In this document: piece by piece, positions 34,334 through 49,026 of the stretch
How the letters are laid out: each line of letters opens with the position of its first letter
How positions within the stretch are numbered: position 1 is the first letter of the stretch
Origin: a virus
Direction: 5' to 3' (one strand)
IMG/VR virus record: IMGVR_UViG_3300026484_000351
Coordinates: 1-64,000 of that record
Length of the DNA: 64,000 nt
Notes under the pieces: generated by a model
What the model was told of the DNA's origin: nothing
The model's input: the letters and a program-made list of their open reading frames with translations, nothing else
Database searches by the model: none
Translations under genes and position numbers: made by a program

Positions 34334-34618
34334 ATGACACAGAATCAAAAACGCCAAAAGCTAATTAGTTTAATTTTTGGTGGTAAAAATCTTCTCAACC
34401 AAAGTCAAATTGATATTTTAGTTCAAGAAATTACAGTCAATAAAAGCAAAGATTACTCGGATAAAATTTATTTGACTTATAATGATTTGGCAGAACAATT
34501 TAAATATTTTGGGCCTGAAATAAGTTTATCAAGAATGAAAAAAAGACAACACCTCGTTCTTAATTATGAAACACTTATTAAAAATGTTGAGACAAAGTTG
34601 CCGGAATTTTTTATTTAA
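34334..34618 (+). CDS. PE-tail family protein
   Basis: Ends KLPEFFI. Confidence 0.65.
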   Translation: MTQNQKRQKLISLIFGGKNLLNQSQIDILVQEITVNKSKDYSDKIYLTYNDLAEQFKYFGPEISLSRMKKRQHLVLNYETLIKNVETKLPEFFI

Positions 34619-34827
34619 AGAAGAATAGACTTTTCACACAATGAAAATGTTTAAACAGCAAATGTGGTACAAAAATTAGATTAAATTACGAGAAAAACTT
34701 ATAAGTTAAACTGACTTAGAAATGTATTAGAAACAAGAATAAAAAAGAGAACCAGAATATGTCTTAAGTAAAAAAGATAGATATATTGAAACTAAAAATT
34801 AAAGATACAATATAAAAGGAAAGAAAA

Positions 34828-35262
34828 ATGTCACTTTTAGAAGATATTAAGAAAGCACAATTACAAGCAAGAAAAGAAAAAGATAAATTTAGAGCAGGCG
34901 TATTGACTTGTTTATACGGTGAAGTAAGTATTATAGGCAAAAATGAGGGTAATAGAGAAACTACTGACGAAGAATGTATTAGGATTGTTACCAAATTTAA
35001 AAAAGGTGTTGAAGAAAACATTAGATTAAAAAGAGATTCTGGGTGTAATGCAAGAGACCTTGCTAAATTTTTTCAAGAAATAGAATTTTATAATACTTTT
35101 CTTCCACAGCAAATGACTAAAGATGAATTAACAGAATACATTAAAAAAACTATTGCACTTGGTGCTAATAATATTGGAGCGGTAATGAAAGTTATGAAAG
35201 CTGAAATTAATGGATTATATGATGGGAAAATGGCTTCAGAGTTAATCAAAAAGTTACTATAA
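34828..35262 (+). CDS. GatB/YqeY domain protein
   Basis: L..DIK.A..ARKEKD, FLPQQM and IGAVMK...G.YDGK motifs. Confidence 0.88.
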   Translation: MSLLEDIKKAQLQARKEKDKFRAGVLTCLYGEVSIIGKNEGNRETTDEECIRIVTKFKKGVEENIRLKRDSGCNARDLAKFFQEIEFYNTFLPQQMTKDELTEYIKKTIALGANNIGAVMKVMKAEINGLYDGKMASELIKKLL

Positions 35263-35302
35263 ATTTAAGTAAGATTACTATATAATAAATAAAAGGAAAT
35301 TA

Positions 35303-36166
35303 ATGGAAACAGTTTACGGAATAGATTACACAAAACCAGAAGTTATGTTACTTCAAGAAACAGGATTGGGTGTACCTGAAATGGCCGCAAGGACTTGTTA
35401 TGACTCTTTTAATGCATCAGAAAATGAATGTATACCGAGATTAAATAATGCCATTAAAGCTCAGGATCTGACAGCGGCAACTCATTATTTAACCGAAGTT
35501 AATAATATTGAACACTCAGAATTACTTGATACTTTAGCTTGGACTCACTTCCATCACAGCATACTAGAACATACAAATTTATCATTTTTAATTAAAGGCA
35601 CTTCTAGAGGGGTTCTTCAGGAGCATGCTAGACACAGAATCCAAAATATATCTGTAAGAAGTACAAGATACACAATGAGCGGAATTATTAATGCATTTGC
35701 TGCAACAGTTAAAGAATCTTCAGGAAAAAATGCTTTTATTAGTTTGGTTTTGCCAATGAATATGTTTGTGACTTCGGATGATAGTTATAACAGAATAGAA
35801 ATTGGTGGAATATTTGACAAATTGATGTATCAATATAGATTACTTGGTAGAGAAAAATTTATGGAGATAGCAGTAGCAAAATCTAGTTTAGATTATGTTA
35901 ATAGTACAGAGCCTTATGCAATTAAATTTCAATTACTTCAAGATGGTAAGAAAAAAAGAAATGTTGGAGATGCGCTTAAGCACATCGTCACGGATAACTG
36001 GAAGGTTGATATGATTGTTACCATGAACCTAAGAGGATTAAAAAATTATTTCAATTTAAGAGATAGTGGAGCAGCATTTTTTCAAATAAGATGGTTAGCA
36101 AAAGCAATGAAAGAAGTTACACCTTCAAAGTATTTGGATCTGATAGTAAGAAACAAAGGTAAATAA
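35303..36166 (+). CDS. thyX: Flavin-dependent thymidylate synthase
   Basis: AARTCY, HHSILEH, SRGVLQEHARHR...SVRSTRY, MNLRGL..Y..LR and AFFQIR motifs. Confidence 0.93.
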   Translation: METVYGIDYTKPEVMLLQETGLGVPEMAARTCYDSFNASENECIPRLNNAIKAQDLTAATHYLTEVNNIEHSELLDTLAWTHFHHSILEHTNLSFLIKGTSRGVLQEHARHRIQNISVRSTRYTMSGIINAFAATVKESSGKNAFISLVLPMNMFVTSDDSYNRIEIGGIFDKLMYQYRLLGREKFMEIAVAKSSLDYVNSTEPYAIKFQLLQDGKKKRNVGDALKHIVTDNWKVDMIVTMNLRGLKNYFNLRDSGAAFFQIRWLAKAMKEVTPSKYLDLIVRNKGK

Positions 36167-36382
36167 TGTAAGATAATAAAATCGTCTGTTAAAAAGTGAA
36201 TGAAAGTGTTGTGTAGATGCAAACATCAAATAACAATAGGTAACATCCAAGCAATAAAGATGATTTCTATTATGGATTTTTTGGGATATGTTTGTCATAT
36301 AAATGGCAAAAATAGGGTAATTTTCACAGACAGAAAACATAGTTTTTGTGAAGAATCTGAAAGAAAAGATAAAAGGGAAAAT

Positions 36383-37079
36383 AATGAAATATAAAACATT
36401 TGAAAGTTTGTTAAATACTTGTAAAAAATTATATGAAGATGGTAGCAAAAAAGATGAACAATTAACTAAAGCATTTGGTGGTGATACTACTATATTACAA
36501 GACTGGTGGGATAATTCAATAGTAGATATTCTTAATTCAATATCAAATGAATTTGGATTAGACACAGAAAATGATAATACAATCGATTGGTTATTCTGGG
36601 ATAGTATGTGCGGATATGATATGAACAATAGATATTTAAGTTTTAATGTAGATGGAATTGAATATGTTGGCTCTCCCAAAAATGTTTACTTAGATTTGAA
36701 TAATATGTTAGATGAAAGATTAGGGATAACAAAAGTAAATAGTGAACCGAAAAAATACGAAATTGATAAAGATTATAAAGAAGAAAAAATTGAAACTCAT
36801 TTTATACAGACAAAAGAAATAAAAGATGTTTTAAACGGTGAAACTGTTAAAGAAACCCCAAGAGAAAGAATTATTAGATATTTTATATCGGCCGGGATAG
36901 AAGTATTACAAAAAATAACAGATTTTCCTAAAGAGACTGTCTTAAGTGCTGAGATAAATGTAGATAATTTGTATGACGAAATTAAAGAGTTAGGTTACGA
37001 TAAACAACTTTTTAGAATTAATCTTTTAGATGTAAAGACTTTAAATAACAAATATAATATAGATTATATAAAGCTTTAA
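36383..37079 (+). CDS. Hypothetical protein
   Basis: ORF track 36348-37079; likely start at MKYKTF (approximate). Confidence 0.55.
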
Positions 37080-37080
37080 A

Positions 37081-37461
37081 ATGATAATAGAAAAGAAAGA
37101 AGTTAAAACAGTATGTGATTGCTGTTTAAAAGAATTAACAGATATTGATATATGGGCAAATAACGAAAGTTTTCGAGAACTGTACTTAAAACGAACACAA
37201 GATAATATTGATTTATGCTATACTTGTGCTGGTAAAATATTTTATAGAGAAGTTCAACAAAAAGTTCCAACTGAAAAAATGCGGGAATGGATAAAAAGTC
37301 TTAGAAAAGTGGAAGGCTCAAACTTAGTTGAAAGTGCTGGTGAAACGGGAAATAGGGAGAATGACAATTGTTCAAAGGAAATATTAGTTAAATCTAGTCC
37401 AAACAGTTCAAGTAATTCATTAAAGTCAATTGATGACCCGAAAAGTATAAAGGATTTATAA
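37081..37461 (+). CDS. Zn-finger hypothetical protein
   Basis: CDCC...DLCYTC. Confidence 0.55.
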   Translation: MIIEKKEVKTVCDCCLKELTDIDIWANNESFRELYLKRTQDNIDLCYTCAGKIFYREVQQKVPTEKMREWIKSLRKVEGSNLVESAGETGNRENDNCSKEILVKSSPNSSSNSLKSIDDPKSIKDL

Positions 37462-37934
37462 TGGGGATAGAAATAGAAAGAAAATTTTTAGTTAAAATGA
37501 AAAAAGGGCCAATGATAAGTAATAGAAAATATGAAATAACTCAAGGTTACATTTTAAATTTACCTGAAAAAGTTATAAGAATTAGAATATTTGATAATAG
37601 TACAGCTTATATAACTATTAAAGGTAAAAATGAAAATATGACAAGACCAGAATATGAGTATAATATTCCCTGCGCAGAGGGTGCAGAACTTATAAAAGTA
37701 ATGTGTACAGATATTATCACTAAAACGAGATATATATGCAATGTGAAAAATAGTAAATGGGAAGTTGATTTTTTCCACGGAGATAATGAAGGTTTAATTG
37801 TCGCAGAAATTGAGTTAAAAGATGAAGATGATCCTATAGATTACCCAGAGTGGATAGGAAAAGAAGTAACTGGCAAGAAGAAATATTATAACAATAATTT
37901 AATTAAAAATCCTTATAAAGATTGGAGTAAATAA
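37461..37934 (+). CDS. CYTH-domain triphosphatase
   Basis: EIERKFLV, QGY, RIR, KTRY, WEVD and AEIEL motifs. Confidence 0.92.
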   Translation: MGIEIERKFLVKMKKGPMISNRKYEITQGYILNLPEKVIRIRIFDNSTAYITIKGKNENMTRPEYEYNIPCAEGAELIKVMCTDIITKTRYICNVKNSKWEVDFFHGDNEGLIVAEIELKDEDDPIDYPEWIGKEVTGKKKYYNNNLIKNPYKDWSK

Positions 37935-38176
37935 TGGAAGTTTATGCAGATAAACTAGGCATTCCACTAAATGTCGGAGATAGAGTTATAATAGCCAGTG
38001 GTGAAACACAAGATTCTTCTATTTATTTAGGAACAGTTAGTGAATTATCTGTATCAAGATATGGTTCAAAACAAGTTAAAGTAAAAAAAGATGGTGGTTC
38101 AATAAATAAAAGAGAACCTGAAGATGTTTTAAGTTTAGTTATTTATGGGAATAATTGTCCCGAAGTTTTTATATAG
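37934..38176 (+). CDS. PE-tail family protein (SH3/KOW-like)
   Basis: LNVGDRVII; ends NCPEVFI. Confidence 0.65.
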   Translation: MEVYADKLGIPLNVGDRVIIASGETQDSSIYLGTVSELSVSRYGSKQVKVKKDGGSINKREPEDVLSLVIYGNNCPEVFI

Positions 38177-38184
38177 GAGATAAT

Positions 38185-38526
38185 ATGGCAGATATTTTAA
38201 GTCAAGATGAAATTAATGCTCTTTTAGATATTCCTGATGAAAACTCAGGTGAACCAGATTTTGGTTCACCTGAGTTTAAAAAATTATCAGATGCTTTTAA
38301 CAAAGCATTTCACAAAGTATTTAAGAGAACAGATTTTTATAGAGAAAAAGTGGAACAGAGTGGTTATATTCCTAGAATCCGGGGAACAAATCCTAAAGAT
38401 ATGATGGACAGTTTAAAGTGCGAAGAAGAATATTTTCAGAGTACATTAAAGAATTATAAAAAATTTAAAGAATTTCACAAGAAATTTAAGAAGATAGCAG
38501 ATGAACAACCTGAAATTTTTATTTAG
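38185..38526 (+). CDS. PE-tail protein with FliM N-terminal CheY-binding peptide mimic
   Basis: AGGAG RBS; starts MADILSQDEINALL; ends EQPEIFI. Confidence 0.8.
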   Translation: MADILSQDEINALLDIPDENSGEPDFGSPEFKKLSDAFNKAFHKVFKRTDFYREKVEQSGYIPRIRGTNPKDMMDSLKCEEEYFQSTLKNYKKFKEFHKKFKKIADEQPEIFI

Positions 38527-39191
38527 GAAAATAACCACAAGATATTTATAACTATATAAAAGAGACATTTAAAATAAAAACTAGAGATTTGTATCTAAAA
38601 GTTAGTAATTTAATATTAAATTAAGATTAATATGTTATAATTATATAAACAAAAAAAGGATATAATATGGCATTTAGTTACAAAGATTTAATGAGAAGCA
38701 TCAAAGCAACACAAGCAAACATTGATGAGATTCAAGAACAAATTAGTTTATGTGATAGTGAATACGAATTGGCTCAATTAACAGCAGAGTTAGACCATTA
38801 TGAAACTCAATTAAAGGTAACTGAAGATTATATTGATCGAATAGTGGCTAGAGGAAGATATTAGTGTTTCTCTTCCACTTGAAATTACCTAAATTGAGAA
38901 AATCGGTTATAATCGGAAAAACATGGATAAGGTTTTTTGAAACCTTAAAAGAAGAACAAATATATCAGAACTGAAGTAATATTATCGGTAGAACTATTTA
39001 ATAGAAGATTATTCAAGAGATATACCACACAGCATTACGAGGAGATTTATACAAAAATAATGTTACTTAAACTTTTGTATTAGCACAAGATGCTAAAGTT
39101 GTAATTGAGTGTGTATTGGTTAGAGGAACAAATGAAAATTTGCAACTTTAATAAGCAATTCGATTAATACTCCAAAATAGAAAGGAAAAAT

Positions 39192-39464
39192 ATGTCTAAA
39201 AACTCATGGGTAGTAATTATTGGTGGAGGTTTAATAGGGTTAGGTTTGGGTGTAATGGGAATAACTTTTAATATGCCATTATGGTGGTTTTTAAATTTAC
39301 CATTAATTATGTTATTAAATCAGTTTAGCGGAGAAATAGGTGACTTTTTCTCAGATTGGTACAACGATATCATAAAAGGTGAGGTAGTAAATATAATTAT
39401 TCCCAGAGAAGAGATTAAAGAAAAGCGAAAAGAACAAGCAAAATCTAAGAAAAAATATATTTAA
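39192..39464 (+). CDS. Membrane protein with KKYI C-terminus
   Basis: Two TM helices; ends KKKYI. Confidence 0.6.
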   Translation: MSKNSWVVIIGGGLIGLGLGVMGITFNMPLWWFLNLPLIMLLNQFSGEIGDFFSDWYNDIIKGEVVNIIIPREEIKEKRKEQAKSKKKYI

Positions 39465-39482
39465 CAGAAAAGGAAAGAAAGA

Positions 39483-40775
39483 ATGAACATAACACAAGTA
39501 TTACCTATAATGGCGGCAAGTAAAAAGACGGGCGATGTTGTACTAATGAGAGGACTGCATGGAATAGGTAAAAGCGCTATAACAGTACAATATGCAGATC
39601 AGTATAATCTTGGTCTAGAGATATTAATATTATCTCTAATGGAACAAGGCGATTTAATCGGAATACCAAACATTACTAATAATACAACTACTTGGGCAGC
39701 ACCTGACTGGTTAAATAATTTAAGAGATAAAGCATGGCCTAAAAGATTTAATTTTGAAGATTTAGAATTTAAAGATAAAAATTTTGAAGAAGAAGTCAAC
39801 AAACATTCAAAAAATGCAATACTTAGAGAAAATTTAAATAAATTATATAACGAGTTTTATAATGTTAATTTAATTGAGCCTGTTTTAACAAAACAGGATA
39901 ATGTTTCTTGTAGATTGTCTAAAGAAACTGTATTATTTGTTGATGAATATTCAAGAGCTGGTGCAGACATACATAACAGCACAATGCAATTAATATTAGA
40001 CAAAAGACTTCATAATCATGTATTGCCTTATGTTAATGGTGTACAAACACAGATAATTGCTGCAGATAATCCCGCTGACGGTGATTACCATGTAACTGAA
40101 TTAGACCCAGCCAAATTAGATAGATTTTTAATTATTGATGTAGAAGTTGATGCAAAAGCGTGGTTGGCTTGGGCAAGAGAAAATGAGGTTAATTCTATTG
40201 TAAGAGATTTTATTATGAATAACCTAACAAAAATCCATTATGTTCCGGAAGACCAAAGTCAAACAGGAGCAACACCGAGGTCTTGGACTATGCTAGGAAA
40301 ATTTGTAAACCTTTTTGAAACTATTCCTGAAGAAAGTATTTTTCCAATTATTAGAGGTAAAGTGGGTAGCTCATTAGGAGCACAATTCTATACATATTAC
40401 AATGATTATAATAAAAATGTAAGTATTGAAGACATTCAAAAGATTATAGACCAAGAATTCTTTAAACAAGGCGATAATATTGACTTAGAGAAAATTGGAA
40501 AAGTTGTTAAGGAACTAACAAAAGAAATGGAAGGCGTAACTAAAATGGAGTATGCAGAAGAATTATTTTCGGCCATTAAAACTGAAATTAACGATGCTAA
40601 AGGGGTTGAAAATGTAATCCATGTTCTTGGCTTTTTATACTCACTTGATTTGGAAATCCTAACTTCATTACTTAAAGAATGGAAAAACAATGAAAAAGAA
40701 GCATTTTATGGATTAATGAAACTTGATCCTAAGAAGGCACTTGCCTTAAAAATTAAAAGTAAAGTTCAAAAATAA
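39483..40775 (+). CDS. MoxR-like AAA+ ATPase
   Basis: GLHGIGKS, LFVDEYSRA, AADNP, LDPAKLDRF and TPRSW motifs. Confidence 0.9.
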   Translation: MNITQVLPIMAASKKTGDVVLMRGLHGIGKSAITVQYADQYNLGLEILILSLMEQGDLIGIPNITNNTTTWAAPDWLNNLRDKAWPKRFNFEDLEFKDKNFEEEVNKHSKNAILRENLNKLYNEFYNVNLIEPVLTKQDNVSCRLSKETVLFVDEYSRAGADIHNSTMQLILDKRLHNHVLPYVNGVQTQIIAADNPADGDYHVTELDPAKLDRFLIIDVEVDAKAWLAWARENEVNSIVRDFIMNNLTKIHYVPEDQSQTGATPRSWTMLGKFVNLFETIPEESIFPIIRGKVGSSLGAQFYTYYNDYNKNVSIEDIQKIIDQEFFKQGDNIDLEKIGKVVKELTKEMEGVTKMEYAEELFSAIKTEINDAKGVENVIHVLGFLYSLDLEILTSLLKEWKNNEKEAFYGLMKLDPKKALALKIKSKVQK

Positions 40776-41023
40776 TGAATAAAATACTTTTAAATGATGT
40801 TTTAAAAGTTAAAAATGATTTTTGGGAGGGAAGGAACCCAGAAATTATAGGTTTAGTATCAGAAGTTCATACCGATTCTAAAGTATATTTTATGAATTTT
40901 ATAAATGGTATAGATGCACTCCCAACTGTTTCTAATGGGTTTTATATTAAAGAAAATGATATAATTGAAAATTTTGGAAATATCAAAGTTTTTAAAGATA
41001 AGTATCCAGAATATTTTTTATAA
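40775..41023 (+). CDS. PE-tail family protein
   Basis: Coupled to the MoxR gene; ends KYPEYFL. Confidence 0.7.
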   Translation: MNKILLNDVLKVKNDFWEGRNPEIIGLVSEVHTDSKVYFMNFINGIDALPTVSNGFYIKENDIIENFGNIKVFKDKYPEYFL

Positions 41024-41364
41024 TTTTTCTTATGAGCATAAGTTAGATAGTTATGGAAAAATAAATAATAAAAATATGTTGGTCGATTATGGCAACTAAA
41101 ACAAGTCCGGGTATAGGTGATTTTCTACTACACTCAAGTAAATCTGGTAGAAATATGATAGTTGAGATTATGGAAATTTTTATAACGGATTCTTGTAGTG
41201 TTATAATAGCAAAGAAATATAAATTTATATAAAGAATATAAATCTATATAATAGTATAAAAAGTTATACTATCCTTATTTACTGCTTCTAAGTAACTTCT
41301 ATAGAACAATTTCTATAGTGGTATAAGAACTCCACAGTCATTAATTTTTTATACTGGTTAGGTA

Positions 41365-42543
41365 CTATTCTATCCTAGCCAGTCTTAATGCTTCATTTAG
41401 TATGTTTATAGAAGCATTTATATCTCTATCTTCTTCAAAACTGCATTCAGAACATGAGTATATTCGCTCTTCGAGCGATAAACTCTCTTTTACTGAACCA
41501 CATCTTGAACAGGTTTTAGAGGAAGGATAATAAGTATCTATTCTAGATATACTAACTTGGTTTTCGTTAGCTTTATACTCTATTTTAGATACTAAATCAC
41601 TCCATGCTATATTAGATATAGCTTTAGACAATCTTCTATTTTTAATCATATTTTTTACTTGAAGACTTTCTAAACCTATAAAATCATATAGATTGATTAG
41701 TTTTTTGGATACCTGATGATTTATAGTGTTTCTTGAATTCTTTATTTTATTATGCACCCTAGCTACTTTTAATCTAGCTTTATTTCTATTTTTGCTTCCT
41801 TTCTTCTTTTTACTTAGTTTTCTTTGTTCTAATTTAAGTTTTCTTTGGTACTTATATGTTAATTTATGATTTTCTATAGTATATCCATCAGAACATATTA
41901 TCATATCTTTAAGACCTAAATCTATACCTACTTTCTTATTGGTTTTCTTTCTATTATTCTTTACTTCTATCTTATGTGTTATGGTTATTCAGTACTTATC
42001 TAGGTTATCTTTTTCTATAGTAAAACCTGTTATTTTACCTATATTATGGTTTGTTTTATGTTTCTTAAATTTTATTTTATGGTCTTCTTTAGTATAAGAT
42101 GACTTATTGCTTTTATTTAATTGTATATGGTTATCTTCTATTTTAACTCTAGAACCAGCCTTCATACCTATAGTCTTTTTAGATGTCTTTTTACTCTTAA
42201 ATTTAGGATATCCTCTATCTGGTTGTTTTATAAATTCCTTCATACCAAGATATAAATTAGATAAACTAGATTGTATAAAATCATTAGGTAATTTATTAAT
42301 AAAAGAATATTCTTCTTTTAATTTAGTACTAAAACCTACTATACCAGTTTGATTAGGTATCTTAGGTCTCACTTGACCTTTATTTTTGCCTTTTTCTATA
42401 GTGTACACACCAAAATAATTATCTTGTATCTTACCTAAAACATTATTATAGGTAAATCTATAGAGGTTAAATTGTTTATCTAATAATGCTTTTTGTTTAG
42501 CATTAGGATATAGTCTATATTTGTTTGTTCTTACTAATTCCAT
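41365..42543 (-). pseudogene. tnpB: TnpB with an in-frame TGA (392 codons)
   Basis: YRLYPN HTH, GIDLG, IGLESL, CSRC/CSEC and DRDINASINI; single TGA at 41989-41991 in DKY*ITI, and the frame continues. Confidence 0.9.
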
Positions 42544-42576
42544 ATTTAACCCCTTTATATTTATTTATACAATTAT

Positions 42577-43176
42577 TTATATAATATTATTTTTAAGATT
42601 TTCTTGTACAGATTTTAACATCTTTCTTCTATTACTATACATTTTCATACTAAAATGATGTATTATAGATATTAAATCCTGTGTTAATTCAGTTTGAAAA
42701 TCTTCTTCTTTGGTAAAATTTATATATACTATATCTGTTCCATAACTACTAAACCATTTTTCTATATAATTATAGCCAAATCTAGTAAGTCTATCTTTAT
42801 AAGAAATATATATAGTATCTATATTACCATTTTGTACTTCTTTAATAAGAGCATTAAAACCCTTCCTATCTTCATTCATTCCAGAAGCTATATCTTTATA
42901 TACCTTATCTACTATAATACCTTTAGAAGCAATAAATTCCCTTAATATTTTTTCTTGCTTTTCTAAGTCTTCTTTTTGTTTAGTATTACTTACTCTACAA
43001 TATATAACTTGATTTTTATCTTTGGGTTTTGTGAGCATTAAACTATCTATATCATATAAGAAATTCCTACTATTTAATTCTTTGTATTTAACCTTTCCTT
43101 GTCTTCTATAATTATTTAAAGTTTGACTTGTAATGCCCAAAATCTCTTTTATTTTCTTAGCGTTTATATAACTCAT
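42577..43176 (-). CDS. tnpA: IS607 serine transposase
   Basis: N-terminal MerR-like HTH, YCRVSN...Q, DIASG and DRLTRFG motifs. Confidence 0.93.
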   Translation of the reverse strand: MSYINAKKIKEILGITSQTLNNYRRQGKVKYKELNSRNFLYDIDSLMLTKPKDKNQVIYCRVSNTKQKEDLEKQEKILREFIASKGIIVDKVYKDIASGMNEDRKGFNALIKEVQNGNIDTIYISYKDRLTRFGYNYIEKWFSSYGTDIVYINFTKEEDFQTELTQDLISIIHHFSMKMYSNRRKMLKSVQENLKNNII

Positions 43177-43390
43177 TTATTTCCTTTTATATTTATTTAT
43201 ATATTAAGTAATTTTATTATATAATTTATTATAGATAGAAAGTTATTAATTATAGGTGCAAAATAATGTTTATTATTGGAGAAAAAGGTCCGGCACCTCT
43301 TAAAGGTACTATTGCTTATGTTACTAATTATGATTTATGGATAAATTGCAATTTAGAAGAAATCCCTAGTAAATATCCGGAGGTATATAT

Positions 43391-43870
43391 TTGAAAATAA
43401 ATGAATTAAAAATAACTCACACCAATGGAGATTTATATTCCGGATATACGATTGAACTTAACAATATTACTAAATATTTTGAACACAATGAGAAATTTCA
43501 AGAAGCAGGAATGTTCACAACTAGAAAAATGAAACAACTTTTAGAGGACCCAGAATTCCTAGACTTTGTAATAAGTAATTACAAGTCTTCAGAACCAGTT
43601 GTTGATTTTGATTCTCTAATAGTAGAAAAGGGAGTATCAAAATCAATGCAGGTGCTATTTTATCGTTCTAGAATAGCAATGAATTATTTTGGAGTGATAA
43701 CCGAAATGTTAATGAAACTCCGAAATCGAAAAACGATTTTAATTAAACTAGAAGACCCCTTAAAAAACTTTAATATAGAAACAATCGTAAAACTACAAAA
43801 TAAAGAAGAAATGAAGGAGTTTTTTGATTATCAATATATTGAAAACAAATACCCGGAGATGTATATATGA
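43391..43870 (+). CDS. PE-tail family protein
   Basis: Ends KYPEMYI. Confidence 0.7.
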   Translation: MKINELKITHTNGDLYSGYTIELNNITKYFEHNEKFQEAGMFTTRKMKQLLEDPEFLDFVISNYKSSEPVVDFDSLIVEKGVSKSMQVLFYRSRIAMNYFGVITEMLMKLRNRKTILIKLEDPLKNFNIETIVKLQNKEEMKEFFDYQYIENKYPEMYI

Positions 43871-44133
43871 AAAAAAGAGAAGTATTAAAAGGTGATTATG
43901 TTTTAATAAAAGACCGTAATGATATTCAGCATGTTGTAAGAGTAGATGCTGTTGTAAAAATAGATACGATAAAACCTTCAAAAAAAGTCCAAGCGTATGC
44001 AAGTACTATTATTAAAAGTATAGATAAAAGTAATCTTAATACCACCACATTTTATGATAAAGATGTACAACTAATATTAGGAGCTATAAATGCTCGAACA
44101 CTAGAAACAGAATATCCTGAGATATTTCTATGA
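43867..44133 (+). CDS. PE-tail family protein
   Basis: KGDYVLI; ends EYPEIFL. Confidence 0.7.
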   Translation: MKKREVLKGDYVLIKDRNDIQHVVRVDAVVKIDTIKPSKKVQAYASTIIKSIDKSNLNTTTFYDKDVQLILGAINARTLETEYPEIFL

Positions 44134-44399
44134 TTGGTAAATTTGTATTAATAAAAACAGATAATATTATTGAAAAAGGTTCGAAGCACTCAGAAGATCA
44201 ACCTTGTTATTTTGTGGTAAATATAATAGAAAAGAGTAAAATTGGCAGAGATTGGAAATCAAAAGTTCTTTGGTTTTATGATGTTGCATATAATGAATTA
44301 CATTTTTTTAAAAAAGATATATTGTTTGAATTTGAAAAAGAACCATCTTGGAGAGAGATGGAAAACATGGAAGGAACACATCCAGAGTACTGGTTATAA
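44130..44399 (+). CDS. PE-tail family protein
   Basis: Ends THPEYWL. Confidence 0.7.
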   Translation: MIGKFVLIKTDNIIEKGSKHSEDQPCYFVVNIIEKSKIGRDWKSKVLWFYDVAYNELHFFKKDILFEFEKEPSWREMENMEGTHPEYWL

Positions 44400-44421
44400 A
44401 GGATTAAAAATAGTTTATGCA

Positions 44422-44742
44422 ATGGTAGATGACCAACTGAATATTTTAAAAATATATTCAGAAAAGGGTTTAGATGACATTAGAAAATTAAGAACTATCC
44501 ATGTAAGTAAATTTGAAAAATTAAAATTTAATGGAAATTATGGAAGTTCAACTGTTTTTCCGTTTTATGATATTAATGAGGCAAAAATAGTTACTGCTAT
44601 TAAACAGGTTCAGGGATTAAAGGAACAAGCAATTAATTATGAGAATAACGACTGGAAAATTAATGAAAATTTCAAAAGTATAGATAAAACTCAAGAGTGG
44701 TTGAAAAAGAAGGAAAAAATTTATCCAGAGTACTTCGTTTAA
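44422..44742 (+). CDS. PE-tail family protein (start uncertain)
   Basis: Ends IYPEYFV; the track start at 44242 overlaps the previous gene. Confidence 0.6.
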   Translation: MVDDQLNILKIYSEKGLDDIRKLRTIHVSKFEKLKFNGNYGSSTVFPFYDINEAKIVTAIKQVQGLKEQAINYENNDWKINENFKSIDKTQEWLKKKEKIYPEYFV

Positions 44743-45022
44743 TCTTATTTTAATATTTATTATGTTATAATTATTATAGAAAAACACATAAAGGTTATAT
44801 AATGACAAAAGCGATAAACAACTACAGAATAAGTATTAATTCAAATGACAGATTAACTGGAGAGTTTACAGGTGGAAAAGAATATTTTGAAACTGAAGCA
44901 GAAGCAGTGATAGTTTTTAATAAATTTGTTTTATAAGAATTAGCACCAAATAATAACTTTCTATTTATAGAGAAATATATAAAAATGAAATTTTAGCAAG
45001 TTTTGATACAACAGGAATATAA

Positions 45023-45643
45023 ATGATACATAATTTTTTAATAGAGTCTTTGAATGATATTGAAGGTATTAATAAAATACAGCATAAACTACAAGATACT
45101 TTGTTAAGACCAGCAAAAATCCCTAAGGGAACAGCGGCATTATATTTTAGTGCAAGTGAACTTTCTCGAATAGTTACTAAATTTTTAGATATTAAAAAGA
45201 AGTTTATTGAATTAGATTTATTTAAAGATGAGTTTGATAGATGTAATTATTTTAAAGTTTCTGAATTAGATACACTTACTTTAATAGAACATAATTTGAT
45301 GCTTTGGGATTTAAATTATGAAAGTTTATTTGCCACTTTAAAGTATGAAATAAACGATTTAACAGAAAGAATAAAAAGAGCACCATTAAATTGGTATAAT
45401 AAGCATGCTTATTTAATAAATAATGAGACTTATATTGACAAAAAATATTTTAGTATTTACAGAATAGTTGATAAAAATTGGGATACTTTAACAATCACCT
45501 TAGAATGTTGTAAGTATAGTACCCATTCGAAAAGTCTTTCAATAGATATAGTTAAAATTAAATGTGATAGTATTAGAGATATATATCAAGAACAGTTTTT
45601 AAGTGAAGAAATAGGGAAGATTTACCCCGAATGGTTTTTATAA
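45023..45643 (+). CDS. PE-tail family protein
   Basis: Ends IYPEWFL. Confidence 0.7.
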   Translation: MIHNFLIESLNDIEGINKIQHKLQDTLLRPAKIPKGTAALYFSASELSRIVTKFLDIKKKFIELDLFKDEFDRCNYFKVSELDTLTLIEHNLMLWDLNYESLFATLKYEINDLTERIKRAPLNWYNKHAYLINNETYIDKKYFSIYRIVDKNWDTLTITLECCKYSTHSKSLSIDIVKIKCDSIRDIYQEQFLSEEIGKIYPEWFL

Positions 45644-45652
45644 GGAGAAATA

Positions 45653-46996
45653 GTGGAAAAAGCAACAGTAGAGAAATTATATAACGAGCAGGATAGGGAA
45701 TGTATAGATTCCACCTTTGCTAATATGTTTTCTAGTCCAGCATACAGAGAAGATTATGTTTTTTATGCTCATATATTGGCGCAATGTAAAGTAATTATGA
45801 CAAGCGATGTTGATTTAGCAGGAGTAAATTTTACAATTAACAAGTATAACCTTTTTATTAATCCAGAAAGATTTCTTGAATTACCCCTTTTGGAAAGAAT
45901 GTCAGTACTTAAACACGAATCGCTTCATATTCTTTATGGGCATATTTCAAGAAAGGGAGACAGAAACCATAAATTATTCAATAACTCTTCAGATGTTGCA
46001 ATTAACCAGCTTATCACGAGAGAACATTTACCTGAAGGCTGTCTTTACCCTGATACTCTTGAAAAGGCTCTAAAGGAACAAGGTTATAAAATAAAAGTAC
46101 CTGAAATGCTTTCAGCAGAACATTATTATGATTTACTTCCTTCAGAAATAAAAGATAATGCCGAGAATGGACAATGTAATAGTGGAGAAGGAAATCCTCA
46201 AAATTGTGAAAAATGTGGTGGAGCTGGTAAAGAAGAAGACGGAAAACCTTGTAAACATTGTAATGGAACGGGTAAAGAATTCTACAAAGGTTTATTTAAA
46301 GATAATCCACTTGATGACCATAGCAAATGGAATGAGTCAGAAGGAGAATCTGACTTACAACAGGACATCACAAAAAGAATGATTGATAAAAGTATTGAAA
46401 AATCAAGAGGAAACACGCCTTCTCATTTAGAGTATTTTATGGAATTATGGGGGAAAAAAGCACAAATTAGTTGGAAAAAAGTTCTTAGAAATATCGCAAG
46501 TAATAAAAAAGCAAATAAAGTAACAACTATTATGAGAAAATCAAGACGGTTCCCAAATAGACTTGAAATTAGAGGCCATAAGAAAGACAAAATCTTTGAT
46601 ATTGTAGTTATATTAGATGTTTCGGGGAGTATGTCAGATAAAGAAATTATTACTGGACTGGCAGAAATTCGTGAAGTAGCAAAACTTACGGCAAGTACTG
46701 TTAAAATTATTCAAGTTGATACAGAAGTGCATGCAGTAGAGGATTTTACGCCAGGCAAATTTAATAGAAGTGCAGGTGGTGGAACAGAAATGCTACCAGG
46801 ATTTAGATACATTAAGGAGAATAAGGTATCGCATGATGCTATTATTTTAATTACAGATGGATGGATAGAGGATATTTCATACTGGGCAAAAGAAGGTGTA
46901 GCACCAAAATGTCCTTTAATGATTCTTAGCACTGAAGCAGATATTGATGTTTCAGGATACAGAAATTATAGATTTTTCAAACTAGATCAAGCGTAG
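45653..46996 (+). CDS. Metallopeptidase-VWA protein (DUF2201-like), MoxR partner, with DnaJ-like Zn finger
   Basis: HESLH, N...D.AIN, CEKCGGAG...CKHCNGTG, DDHSKW, MIDAS DVSGSM, GGGT and ITDG motifs. Confidence 0.88.
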   Translation: MEKATVEKLYNEQDRECIDSTFANMFSSPAYREDYVFYAHILAQCKVIMTSDVDLAGVNFTINKYNLFINPERFLELPLLERMSVLKHESLHILYGHISRKGDRNHKLFNNSSDVAINQLITREHLPEGCLYPDTLEKALKEQGYKIKVPEMLSAEHYYDLLPSEIKDNAENGQCNSGEGNPQNCEKCGGAGKEEDGKPCKHCNGTGKEFYKGLFKDNPLDDHSKWNESEGESDLQQDITKRMIDKSIEKSRGNTPSHLEYFMELWGKKAQISWKKVLRNIASNKKANKVTTIMRKSRRFPNRLEIRGHKKDKIFDIVVILDVSGSMSDKEIITGLAEIREVAKLTASTVKIIQVDTEVHAVEDFTPGKFNRSAGGGTEMLPGFRYIKENKVSHDAIILITDGWIEDISYWAKEGVAPKCPLMILSTEADIDVSGYRNYRFFKLDQA

Positions 46997-47006
46997 GAAA
47001 AACATT

Positions 47007-47270
47007 ATGAATTATTATGAAAATGCTAATATGCAATTTGAAAAAAGAGAACCAATTAGATATTATTTTGATGGTAAAGATCTCAAAGGAATTTATAATA
47101 TAGATTCTGGAAAAAATCTAAAAAAATCTATTTTAAAAAGAAAATTCAAGATAGGCTCATTAAAAAGTGTTGATATAGCCGAATATAGAGAACTAGGATT
47201 ATTTCATAGTTATCATAAAAGTATTTCAAAAGAAAAGGCAGAAAAATTATATCCAGAATTTTTTATATAA
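47007..47270 (+). CDS. PE-tail family protein
   Basis: Ends LYPEFFI. Confidence 0.7.
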   Translation: MNYYENANMQFEKREPIRYYFDGKDLKGIYNIDSGKNLKKSILKRKFKIGSLKSVDIAEYRELGLFHSYHKSISKEKAEKLYPEFFI

Positions 47271-47279
47271 GGAAAAAAT

Positions 47280-47561
47280 ATGAGTTTAAAGAATATTAAA
47301 GTATTTAATCAAAATGAATATATTGGTAAAATTATCAAACTTCAAATGAAAGGTACTAACAATATAGGTTTTTATGAAGTTGTTAAATTTAACAGTTATA
47401 TATCTTGTAGATTAATTTATACTATTGAGAAAGGAACAATAAGAAAACAATTTAAAACTAATAGATGTGTCTTATTTGACATTAAAGATTTTTTTAATAG
47501 TGAATTCTTAAATTGTAAACCAGAGGAATTTGAAATTAAATACCCTGAATATTTTATATAG
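47280..47561 (+). CDS. PE-tail family protein
   Basis: Ends KYPEYFI. Confidence 0.7.
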   Translation: MSLKNIKVFNQNEYIGKIIKLQMKGTNNIGFYEVVKFNSYISCRLIYTIEKGTIRKQFKTNRCVLFDIKDFFNSEFLNCKPEEFEIKYPEYFI

Positions 47562-47569
47562 GAGAGAAA

Positions 47570-47785
47570 ATGAATGAATTAGATAAATATTTTAATAAAA
47601 AAATGTCATTCAAAGACATATTTACTAAAGATGGAAGTGGTTCTTTTAGTGAAGATTTTGATGTCCGTACTATAAAGGACAGAAAAATGGAAAATATAAA
47701 AAATTATATCAAAGAACATTATGATATGAGTTTGGATGAATTAGATGAATTTATAATGAAATATGAACCTGAAAGGACTGTATAA
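47570..47785 (+). CDS. Divergent PE-tail protein
   Basis: Ends KYEPERTV. Confidence 0.55.
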   Translation: MNELDKYFNKKMSFKDIFTKDGSGSFSEDFDVRTIKDRKMENIKNYIKEHYDMSLDELDEFIMKYEPERTV

Positions 47786-48228
47786 TGGGTAAAATCTTAT
47801 ACGCAATTAAACCAATAGGTGTCACAAAGGGGTTTGGGCGAGTATATAACAAACAGTTATATATTGGTAAGTATGAAGTTATTAATGGTACTGACATTAA
47901 ATTAGTAGAAGTGCAGGACTTTAATAAAAATATAATTAAAAGACATTCATTTCCAGCGTCACTAAAATATGGCTCATACAATGGAATACAAACAGAAGAT
48001 GTTGGTAGTGAAAATATCTATTCTGGAATGCCCAACACCAATTCGGTAATATTATTTGTAACATTAGTCGAAGCCAAATTACAAAAATTAATAGATATAA
48101 AATATATTAAGATATATTTTGAAAAGGAACTAAGAAAACTTCAAGAAAGAGCAGAAAATAATCTACCTAAAAATATTGAAGAAATTTTTGAGGAATATAG
48201 TGGTAAATACCCGGAATATTTAATATGA
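47785..48228 (+). CDS. PE-tail family protein
   Basis: Ends KYPEYLI. Confidence 0.7.
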   Translation: MGKILYAIKPIGVTKGFGRVYNKQLYIGKYEVINGTDIKLVEVQDFNKNIIKRHSFPASLKYGSYNGIQTEDVGSENIYSGMPNTNSVILFVTLVEAKLQKLIDIKYIKIYFEKELRKLQERAENNLPKNIEEIFEEYSGKYPEYLI

Positions 48229-48788
48229 TTAATTCAGGTGAGCATTTTGAAAATTATATTAGTCACAAAGATATTAAAATTTATTTTGATAACAATAAAG
48301 ATAAAACCCAAATGAAATTATTTACCTCTTATTATGGATATATAACTGTTAATGGCAGAAAAACATCCCTTCAAGAAGATTATAAAGTTGAACCAGTTGA
48401 AATTGTATTATCTGTAGAAAATAAAGAACTTTGTGACCCGTTCAGAAATATGGATAATCTTATGAATGGATTAGATGAAAAACATAATACAGGTTTAAGC
48501 TCAGATAGTTTTAAAAACCCCGAGTTGACAGAATGGCAACCTTTACCCAAAGATACATTAACCTATTTTGATTGGCATGTAACTTTAACAACTCAAAATT
48601 CAGATATAGAAATTGATAAAGGAATTATAGAAAGACTTAAATTTTTTCATACAATGGAACAGGCAGAAATGAATTATATTAAAATGATGGAATATAAATT
48701 TAAAGAATTAGGAATATTTGAAGCATTTGATAAATATAATGAATTATATAATTCATTAAGTAATAAATATCCTGAAGAATTTATATAA
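48225..48788 (+). CDS. PE-tail family protein
   Basis: Ends KYPEEFI. Confidence 0.7.
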   Translation: MINSGEHFENYISHKDIKIYFDNNKDKTQMKLFTSYYGYITVNGRKTSLQEDYKVEPVEIVLSVENKELCDPFRNMDNLMNGLDEKHNTGLSSDSFKNPELTEWQPLPKDTLTYFDWHVTLTTQNSDIEIDKGIIERLKFFHTMEQAEMNYIKMMEYKFKELGIFEAFDKYNELYNSLSNKYPEEFI

Positions 48789-48828
48789 AAATGAACAATT
48801 ACTTAAAAAACTTTATTTAAGGAACTAT

Positions 48829-49026
48829 ATGAATACAGAAATAATTATTGAACCTTTAAATTTTCAAAGCAATTATTTTATTTGTGAAGTAAGATATAAA
48901 GTTGGTAAAAGTATAGTCGTTGCCGAAGGAATTGTAATGCTTACATTAAAAGACTTAACTAAAACAGTTCCTTTGCATTGTACTTTAAAGAACTTTGAGG
49001 AAGAGCATCCAGAGTTTTTCTTATAA
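48829..49026 (+). CDS. PE-tail family protein
   Basis: Ends EHPEFFL. Confidence 0.65.
   Translation: MNTEIIIEPLNFQSNYFICEVRYKVGKSIVVAEGIVMLTLKDLTKTVPLHCTLKNFEEEHPEFFL

Follow-up and report, generated by a model that had tools for sequence, protein, structure and literature searches.

A phage protein that joins a FliM-like N-terminal peptide to a C-terminal tail found around a MoxR/VWA-metallopeptidase pair

What would a phage do with a small protein that opens with the peptide by which FliM docks phosphorylated CheY (CheY-P) and closes with a tail shared by otherwise unrelated neighbours? The question is raised by P0001, a 113-residue protein translated from a stop-free frame on the plus strand at 38185-38526 of the window, by which we mean the whole stretch of DNA analysed, namely the initial 64 kb of an IMG/VR virus record of 96.8 kb (28% GC, estimated to be 37% complete). 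P0001 has MADILSQDEINALL at its N-terminus and QPEIFI at its C-terminus. The gene, its immediate surroundings and the parts of its product are laid out as follows:

37934-38176, plus strand: upstream neighbour, a tail-bearing small ORF of 80 aa ending CPEVFI (ORF list, tail pattern)
38175-38179, plus strand: Shine-Dalgarno sequence AGGAG, 5 nt before the ATG at 38185 and overlapping the TAG stop of the upstream gene
38185-38526, plus strand: coding sequence of P0001 (113 aa), with its TAG stop at 38524-38526; the family has about 12 representatives
38185-38250, plus strand: head, residues 1-22, a look-alike of the FliM N-terminus (FliM-N) consisting of MADILSQDEINALL and an acidic linker (hhalign, conservation)
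38257-38286, plus strand: second conserved motif, residues 25-34, D[YF]GSPEF[EK]KL, with G27 and F31 invariant
38392-38505, plus strand: long amphipathic helix, residues 70-107 (AlphaFold2 pLDDT 85-97), predicted to pack on helix 29-42
38506-38523, plus strand: C-terminal tail QPEIFI, with proline at position -5, kept in 10 of the 12 family representatives

The ribosome-binding site ahead of the ATG at 38185 is strong. A longer alternative beginning at TTG 38155 would lie inside or overlap the upstream gene and is supported by no homolog, while all homologs in the family alignment (A1) start with M-A, M-P or M-V at the methionine of ATG 38185; the FliM-like peptide therefore stands at the very N-terminus of P0001. 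A scan for promoters and terminators returned no more sites than shuffled sequences did. AlphaFold2 run on alignment A1 (mean pLDDT 81) gave helix 29-42, a small hairpin and the long, confidently predicted helix 70-107, with a short head helix (residues 7-14) of lower confidence (pLDDT 63-72) standing apart from this helical body. Known folds and families gave little to compare it with: Foldseek of the model against the PDB found nothing at E<=0.001, the best hits of a wide VIA-align search were generic coiled coils (Z 4.2 at most), the ESM Atlas yielded no usable match, Pfam contained no matching family even at E<=10, and PHROGs returned weak matches only, among them phrog_31201 on residues 1-15 (E 0.015). 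We found no catalytic signature in the body of the protein. The second conserved motif contains an internal aromatic-x-x-P-E-F that is reminiscent of the C-terminal tail.

An exhaustive HMMER search of 1.84 billion representative sequences retrieved 13 proteins, 11 of them small relatives of 83-113 aa. The family is thus rare, with about 12 representatives, all metagenomic and each from a cluster of one or two members, and searches of viral contigs with P0001 and with alignment A1 found no relatives. These 12 representatives span 37-86% identity, and their alignment resolves into three conserved elements (head, second motif and tail) on a variable body. Mean pairwise identity is 70% over residues 1-15, 68% over residues 25-34 and 65% over residues 108-113, against 32% for residues 23-107. 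The consensus of the head is MA[DE][IF]L[ST]QxEI[DN]ALL, with M1, L5, Q7, E9 and I10 invariant and L13 and L14 nearly so, and that of the C-terminal end is QPE[IL][FYL][IL]; P0001 itself has every hallmark of the family, namely the FliM-like head, D[YF]GSPEF[EK]KL, the long C-terminal helix and the QPE end. The head is the best conserved segment of this phage-specific family.

Aligned by hhalign with 12 FliM N-termini (A3), the family gives a match restricted to columns 1-22, where identity is 64% (E 6.7e-12, probability 97.5%). The earlier, sequence-only reading of this DNA had placed the likeness within the first ~16 residues; it is indeed confined to the N-terminal peptide, whereas its extent is 22 columns. 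When metagenomes were scanned with the family patterns, 15 of the 17 loci recovered were FliM genes, the complete ones encoding 335-368 aa, and these FliMs start with MADILSQ(E/D)EIDALL or MAEFLSQDEIDALLDIADEDGG, followed by a conserved YDFK(R/K)PNR segment. Among those of the MADILSQ type only the FliM of L014 (28% GC) was compared with the PDB, where its middle domain is ~80% identical to chains 4GC8, 4FQ0 and 5X0Z, which we take to be Helicobacter pylori FliM; a FliM of the MAEFLSQ type also scored best against these chains (172 bits, versus 82 bits against enterobacterial FliM). Starts of the L014 type together with the scores of the MAEFLSQ type therefore uphold the earlier statement that Campylobacterota FliM begins approximately MA(D/E)ILSQEEIDALL. 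With these FliM N-termini P0001 shares L5, S6, Q7, E9, I10, A12, L13 and L14, the extreme N-terminal position and the acidic linker that follows. At position 11 it has N instead of D; one FliM (L018) and a FliM/FliY-like ORF of 369 aa (L013) have EINAL as well, so that D11N is within natural variation.

Beyond the peptide the likeness ends. P0001 differs from FliM in being phage-encoded and in having a helical body and a C-terminal tail of its own, and the FliM middle domain (CheC-like, contacting FliG) is absent from it, as PF02154 is from the whole 96.8-kb record; the C-terminal SpoA/FliN-like domain is also absent from the 113 residues, which have no Pfam match. Translation, Pfam and hhalign thus agree with what had been noticed at the outset, a protein ending in QPEIFI with neither FliM middle nor SpoA domain. 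The CheZ C-terminal peptide and the FliY N-terminus, short peptides as well, also tether CheY-P, using the same face as FliM-N. P0001 is set apart from both by the lack of the CheZ catalytic D-x3-Q and of a CheC/FliY motif: the only candidate, E81-x3-Q85, was rejected since the glutamine is not conserved in the family alignment, and a CheC domain as in FliY/CheC-type phosphatases is absent (no Pfam match, and the model is a helical hairpin, not alpha/beta). An ordinary host-derived FliM, FliY or CheZ fragment, the outcome that had been named as fatal to the idea of a mimic, thus appears very improbable here: the non-FliM body is conserved and carries no such domain or motif. The reading of LSQxEIDALL as the CheY-P docking peptide is borne out by the literature, in which FliM-N binds CheY-P through this sequence, which is disordered in the unbound state (PMC6700473), and phosphorylation gives CheY a ~20-fold higher affinity for FliM-N (PMC7355467). 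The same review lists FliY as a CheY-P docking partner and mentions a co-crystal of H. pylori SpeE with FliM (PMC7355467).

The same head is found on other phage proteins. In a tblastn search of 50,697 cultured phage records with residues 1-26 of P0001 there was one match, at the N-terminus of a hypothetical protein (WGA02281.1, 124 aa) from Campylobacter phage vB_Cj_QDYZ; homologs of this protein are present in 44 Campylobacter phage records, including Fletchervirus (NCTC12673, CP81, CPX, CP8, CP30A, PC5, PC14), Firehammervirus (CP220, CPt10, CP21) and DA10. Members of this family are ~120-128 aa long and start MA[QM]ILSQEEID.LL; in the seven that we aligned (A2), 11 positions of the head are invariant (A2, I4, L5, S6, Q7, E8, E9, I10, D11, L13 and L14) and identity is 85% in the head and 45% in the remainder. 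These Eucampyvirinae proteins (NCTC12673 gp149 AEA86491.1, CP81 ORF072, CP220 gp071 and WGA02281.1) resemble P0001 in being small, in their FliM-like head and in belonging to phages of flagellated hosts, here Campylobacter. However, their bodies are unrelated to that of P0001, as the BLASTP likeness stops at residue 25, and the seven aligned proteins are without a Pro(-5) tail; the VWA-peptidase discussed below is also missing from four complete genomes of Campylobacter phages whose FliM-head proteins are tailless. Campylobacter phages thus use the head with neither tail nor machine, and therefore the head also works without either. The genes lie at positions 301-687 of the retrieved loci for NCTC12673 (L026) and CP81 (L027) and at 301-666 for CP220 (L028), and the CP81 annotation begins two codons late, so that the FliM-like motif is easily overlooked.

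The head is carried by at least two further bodies, on other phage contigs. A ~199-aa ORF (L023:10001-10600) on a phage-like 54-kb vent contig of 27% GC starts MAEFLSQDEINALLDIVEEEE, with a different body and no Pro(-5) tail. A 168-aa ORF (L044:214-720), located ~9 kb upstream of a VWA-peptidase, starts MASILSQSEIDALL / MASILSQSEIDALLDAVDE and ends KPHLGL. Small ORFs with an N-terminal LSQDEIDALL, such as the 130-aa MSDGSLSQDEIDALLAGVES, also occur on viral contigs of 36-52% GC (L117/L133, L124); judging from these, the N-terminal FliM-like head may perhaps not be limited to phages of Campylobacterota.

The host of our phage is probably a flagellated Campylobacterota bacterium of hydrothermal vents, as far as can be judged from its DNA and its surroundings. 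The phage DNA, of 28% GC, is present in three hydrothermal-vent metagenome runs, one of them possibly its source, and vent metagenome contigs of 27-40% GC carry FliMs starting MADILSQ(E/D)EIDALL. No RNA dataset is listed among the sequencing runs that contain the phage DNA. Its T4-like terminase, TerL, shares only ~35% identity with the terminases of T4-like Vibrio phages, no near-identical DNA was found among cultured phages, and there is no tRNA within the 64-kb window.

We consider it rather probable that the head docks CheY-P in the manner of FliM-N and so withholds it from the C-ring, with the consequence that chemotactic switching would fail. In this mechanism P0001 would be a phage accessory protein in which the three conserved pieces are carried by a small helical scaffold. 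The flexible peptide 1-22 would dock CheY-P of the flagellated host on the face used by FliM, competing with the motor and probably also with other partners of that face. With less CheY-P at the C-ring the motor would keep turning in its default direction, giving few reversals and no chemotaxis. The role of the helical body, in which helix 29-42 packs against helix 70-107, is probably limited to presenting the peptide, perhaps in oligomeric form. QPEIFI, the tail, would most likely couple P0001 to a phage MoxR AAA+/VWA-metallopeptidase pair, either for delivery of cargo or for its own removal.

What points to such a partner is the distribution of the tail. In the record, PEx[FYW][ILVMF] at the extreme C-terminus is found in 15 of 263 plus-strand ORFs and in none of 325 minus-strand ORFs, and in all 15-18 small ORFs share the tail. 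The array that they form encloses the two genes of the pair:

34334-49026, plus strand: array containing 14 of the 15 ORFs with the strict PEx[FYW][ILVMF] tail (tail pattern)
39483-40775, plus strand: MoxR-type AAA+ ATPase (AAA_5), within the array (domain search)
45653-46996, plus strand: DUF2201_N metallopeptidase plus VWA-like protein, with HExxH and DxSGS (MIDAS) invariant in 20 homologs

Likeness among the tailed proteins is for the most part limited to the final 12-40 residues; a single pair is weakly similar over the full length (BLASTP E 3e-5). The codons for Pro, Glu, Tyr and stop in the tail vary synonymously, therefore selection acts on the protein, and a motif at the DNA level was rejected on these grounds. 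A T4-type prohead-protease site was also considered and rejected, since the P3 aromatic is not Leu/Ile and P1 varies between E, H and Q. Several other elements lie in or near the array. Upstream, at 34828-37934, a YqeY-like protein, ThyX and a CYTH-domain protein are encoded on the same strand. An IS607-like element is inserted at 41365-43394, with a serine recombinase (42577-43176, minus strand) and a TnpB split into 41365-41904 and 41989-42543 (minus strand), and a tailed gene may have been disrupted, leaving as its 3' remnant the 42-aa ORF at 43266-43394 with its YPEVYI end. The best match of the resolvase among genome contigs has 55% identity and comes from unrelated phyla, which gives no clue to the host.

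The association is not peculiar to this phage. While the single VWA protein as a query matched no viral contig, the alignment of its homologs (A4) retrieved 80 viral loci. In the 33 of these with a VWA-peptidase at least 29% identical, 93 of 1274 plus-strand ORFs end in P[EHQD]x[FLYWIM][ILVF], against 0 of 1110 on the minus strand; in the 47 loci with more distant VWA genes it is 1 of 2063 plus-strand ORFs. The tail comes in dialects by lineage, with PExF[IL] and PELLI in several loci, PHLFL about 13 times in L044 and PQYFI in L049, L057 and L064, and the second FliM head mentioned above (L044:214-720) carries the local variant, PHLGL. P0001 belongs to this class, with its P-[EHQ]-x-hydrophobic-[ILV] end, on the same strand as the DUF2201 VWA-peptidase and within ~10 kb of it, and three members of its family appear to share contigs with VWA-peptidase homologs, judging from equal contig sizes (14063, 14095 and 5891). 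On viral contigs L032-L064 (for example L038:3293-12566, L039, L041, L044 and L049) tailed same-strand small ORFs flank the DUF2201 VWA-metallopeptidase. The tail accompanies the machine, although part of the association could come from common descent of related phages. The design of a target-binding head and a common tail, which the sequence-only reading had put forward for the PE family, holds across many phages, following a subclade of the VWA-metallopeptidase.

Tailed ORFs and DUF2201 VWA-metallopeptidase together look like a conserved phage system that is apparently undescribed; full-text literature searches found no description of DUF2201 function. Known pairs of a MoxR AAA+ ATPase and a VWA protein, such as RavA-ViaA and CbbQ-CbbO, similarly consist of an AAA_5 ATPase and a VWA protein with intact MIDAS, and in such pairs the VWA partner is usually the substrate adaptor. 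The phage pair differs in that its VWA protein also has an HExxH peptidase domain (DUF2201_N) and in the common-tail small ORFs around it. From this arrangement of genes, the MoxR/VWA-peptidase pair is probably the partner of the tail.

What the tail does then bears on what P0001 is. It may be an adaptor for destruction or remodelling, in which the head catches CheY-P and the tail passes the complex to the MoxR/VWA-HExxH peptidase, so that CheY is degraded or unfolded. This possibility, which we consider less likely than not, is favoured by the clustering of the otherwise unrelated tailed ORFs around the two genes, by the persistence of the association in other phages with lineage-specific tails, by the invariance of HExxH and of the MIDAS DxSGS in the homologs, and by the local tail variant on the second FliM head. 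Against it, the head without tail or machine in Campylobacter phages implies that the head works alone, and the E, H or Q found at tail position -4 is hard to reconcile with a single simple metal-ligand model; this variation speaks against that residue making a simple carboxylate-MIDAS contact.

Alternatively, the tail could be a degron or processing signal. P0001 would then be a simple decoy, with the phage peptidase controlling how long it lasts and allowing timed removal of early effectors. The co-occurrence of tail and VWA-peptidase in viral loci, the extreme C-terminal position with proline fixed at -5, as in recognition tags, and the diversity of the bodies of tailed proteins are all consistent with this, and we regard it as rather unlikely. 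More speculatively, P0001 could be one of a library of two-module adaptors, in which heads that mimic host docking peptides are joined to the common Pro(-5) tail and feed captured host proteins to the MoxR/VWA-metallopeptidase for unfolding or cleavage. This would amount to programmable targeted degradation, with tail dialects (PExFI, PHLFL, PQYFI) co-varying with the machine; as a general scheme we would also call it unlikely.

A different kind of doubt concerns the target of the head, which could bind another receiver domain or partner (CheV, the CheA receiver or another response regulator) or localize P0001 to the polar chemosensory or flagellar region. The alpha4-beta5-alpha5 surface is the general output face of receiver domains, and Campylobacterota possess several CheY-like domains. 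However, the first 15 residues of P0001 are identical at 14 of 15 positions to the heads of the FliMs in L015 and L017, from the contig set of 27-40% GC (these two were not themselves compared with the PDB), FliM-N is known for its specificity for CheY-P (PMC6700473, PMC7355467), and the 96.8-kb phage record encodes no receiver domain. We therefore find another target improbable and return to CheY-P as the preferred one.

Could the likeness to FliM instead be a coincidence, SQxEIDALL being a common helix-start motif that is part of the fold of P0001 itself, with no mimicry? The core motif occurs once in the six frames of the whole 96.8-kb record, and the back-translated 10-residue core [LF][ST]Q[DE]EI[DN]ALL is found in only 30 stretches among 2.9 million viral contigs. 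About 16 of these are internal, mostly in lysozyme-like or methylase-like ORFs, and two lie near the N-terminus of likely integrases, identities that were judged by eye; examples of such lysozyme-, DNA-methylase- and integrase-like ORFs are found in L112, L113, L115, L118, L121, L126 and L136. The 10-residue core alone is thus not specific to FliM and is no proof of mimicry. The case for mimicry therefore rests on four further points: the match extends over 22 residues, taking in M-A-D-I-L and the acidic linker; its place is the extreme N-terminus; the head is more conserved than the body; and, among phages sharing a host group, the head recurs N-terminally on three or more other small bodies that are unrelated to one another. 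With these in hand, coincidence appears quite improbable. That the head is an inert remnant of the 5' end of a captured host fliM is very improbable and was already disfavoured, because the 80% nucleotide identity of the first 66 nt of P0001 to one FliM type (53 of 66 nt; 13 of 16 codons identical) could result from AT-rich codon bias, while the head is under purifying selection over ~12 diverged representatives, with an intact ribosome-binding site and a conserved non-FliM body.

The observation from which we started is confirmed, then, and the interpretation given to it, a mimic that captures CheY-P, is partly supported. Full-text literature searches found no description of a phage mimic of FliM-N. 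The docking peptide is known and its use by phages would be new, and the system of tail and machine is the more novel question. Should the head indeed bind CheY-P, then phages that infect flagellated Campylobacterota would disable or redirect the chemotactic control exerted on the motor by mimicry of a short peptide, a strategy that is well known for eukaryotic viruses and, to our knowledge, hardly described for phages. As cultured Campylobacter jejuni phages (NCTC12673, CP81, CP220) encode a hypothetical protein with the same head, the proposal is directly testable. In H. pylori, biofilm initiation is greater in strains that seldom reverse (CCW bias) and is inhibited by high CheY~P (PMC11237671), and by extension from these data a CheY-P decoy could change how infected cells swim as well as how they attach to surfaces, to the possible benefit of the phage. 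The common tail and its conserved link to the MoxR/VWA-peptidase pair, in turn, point to an undescribed phage machine, maybe one with many host targets.
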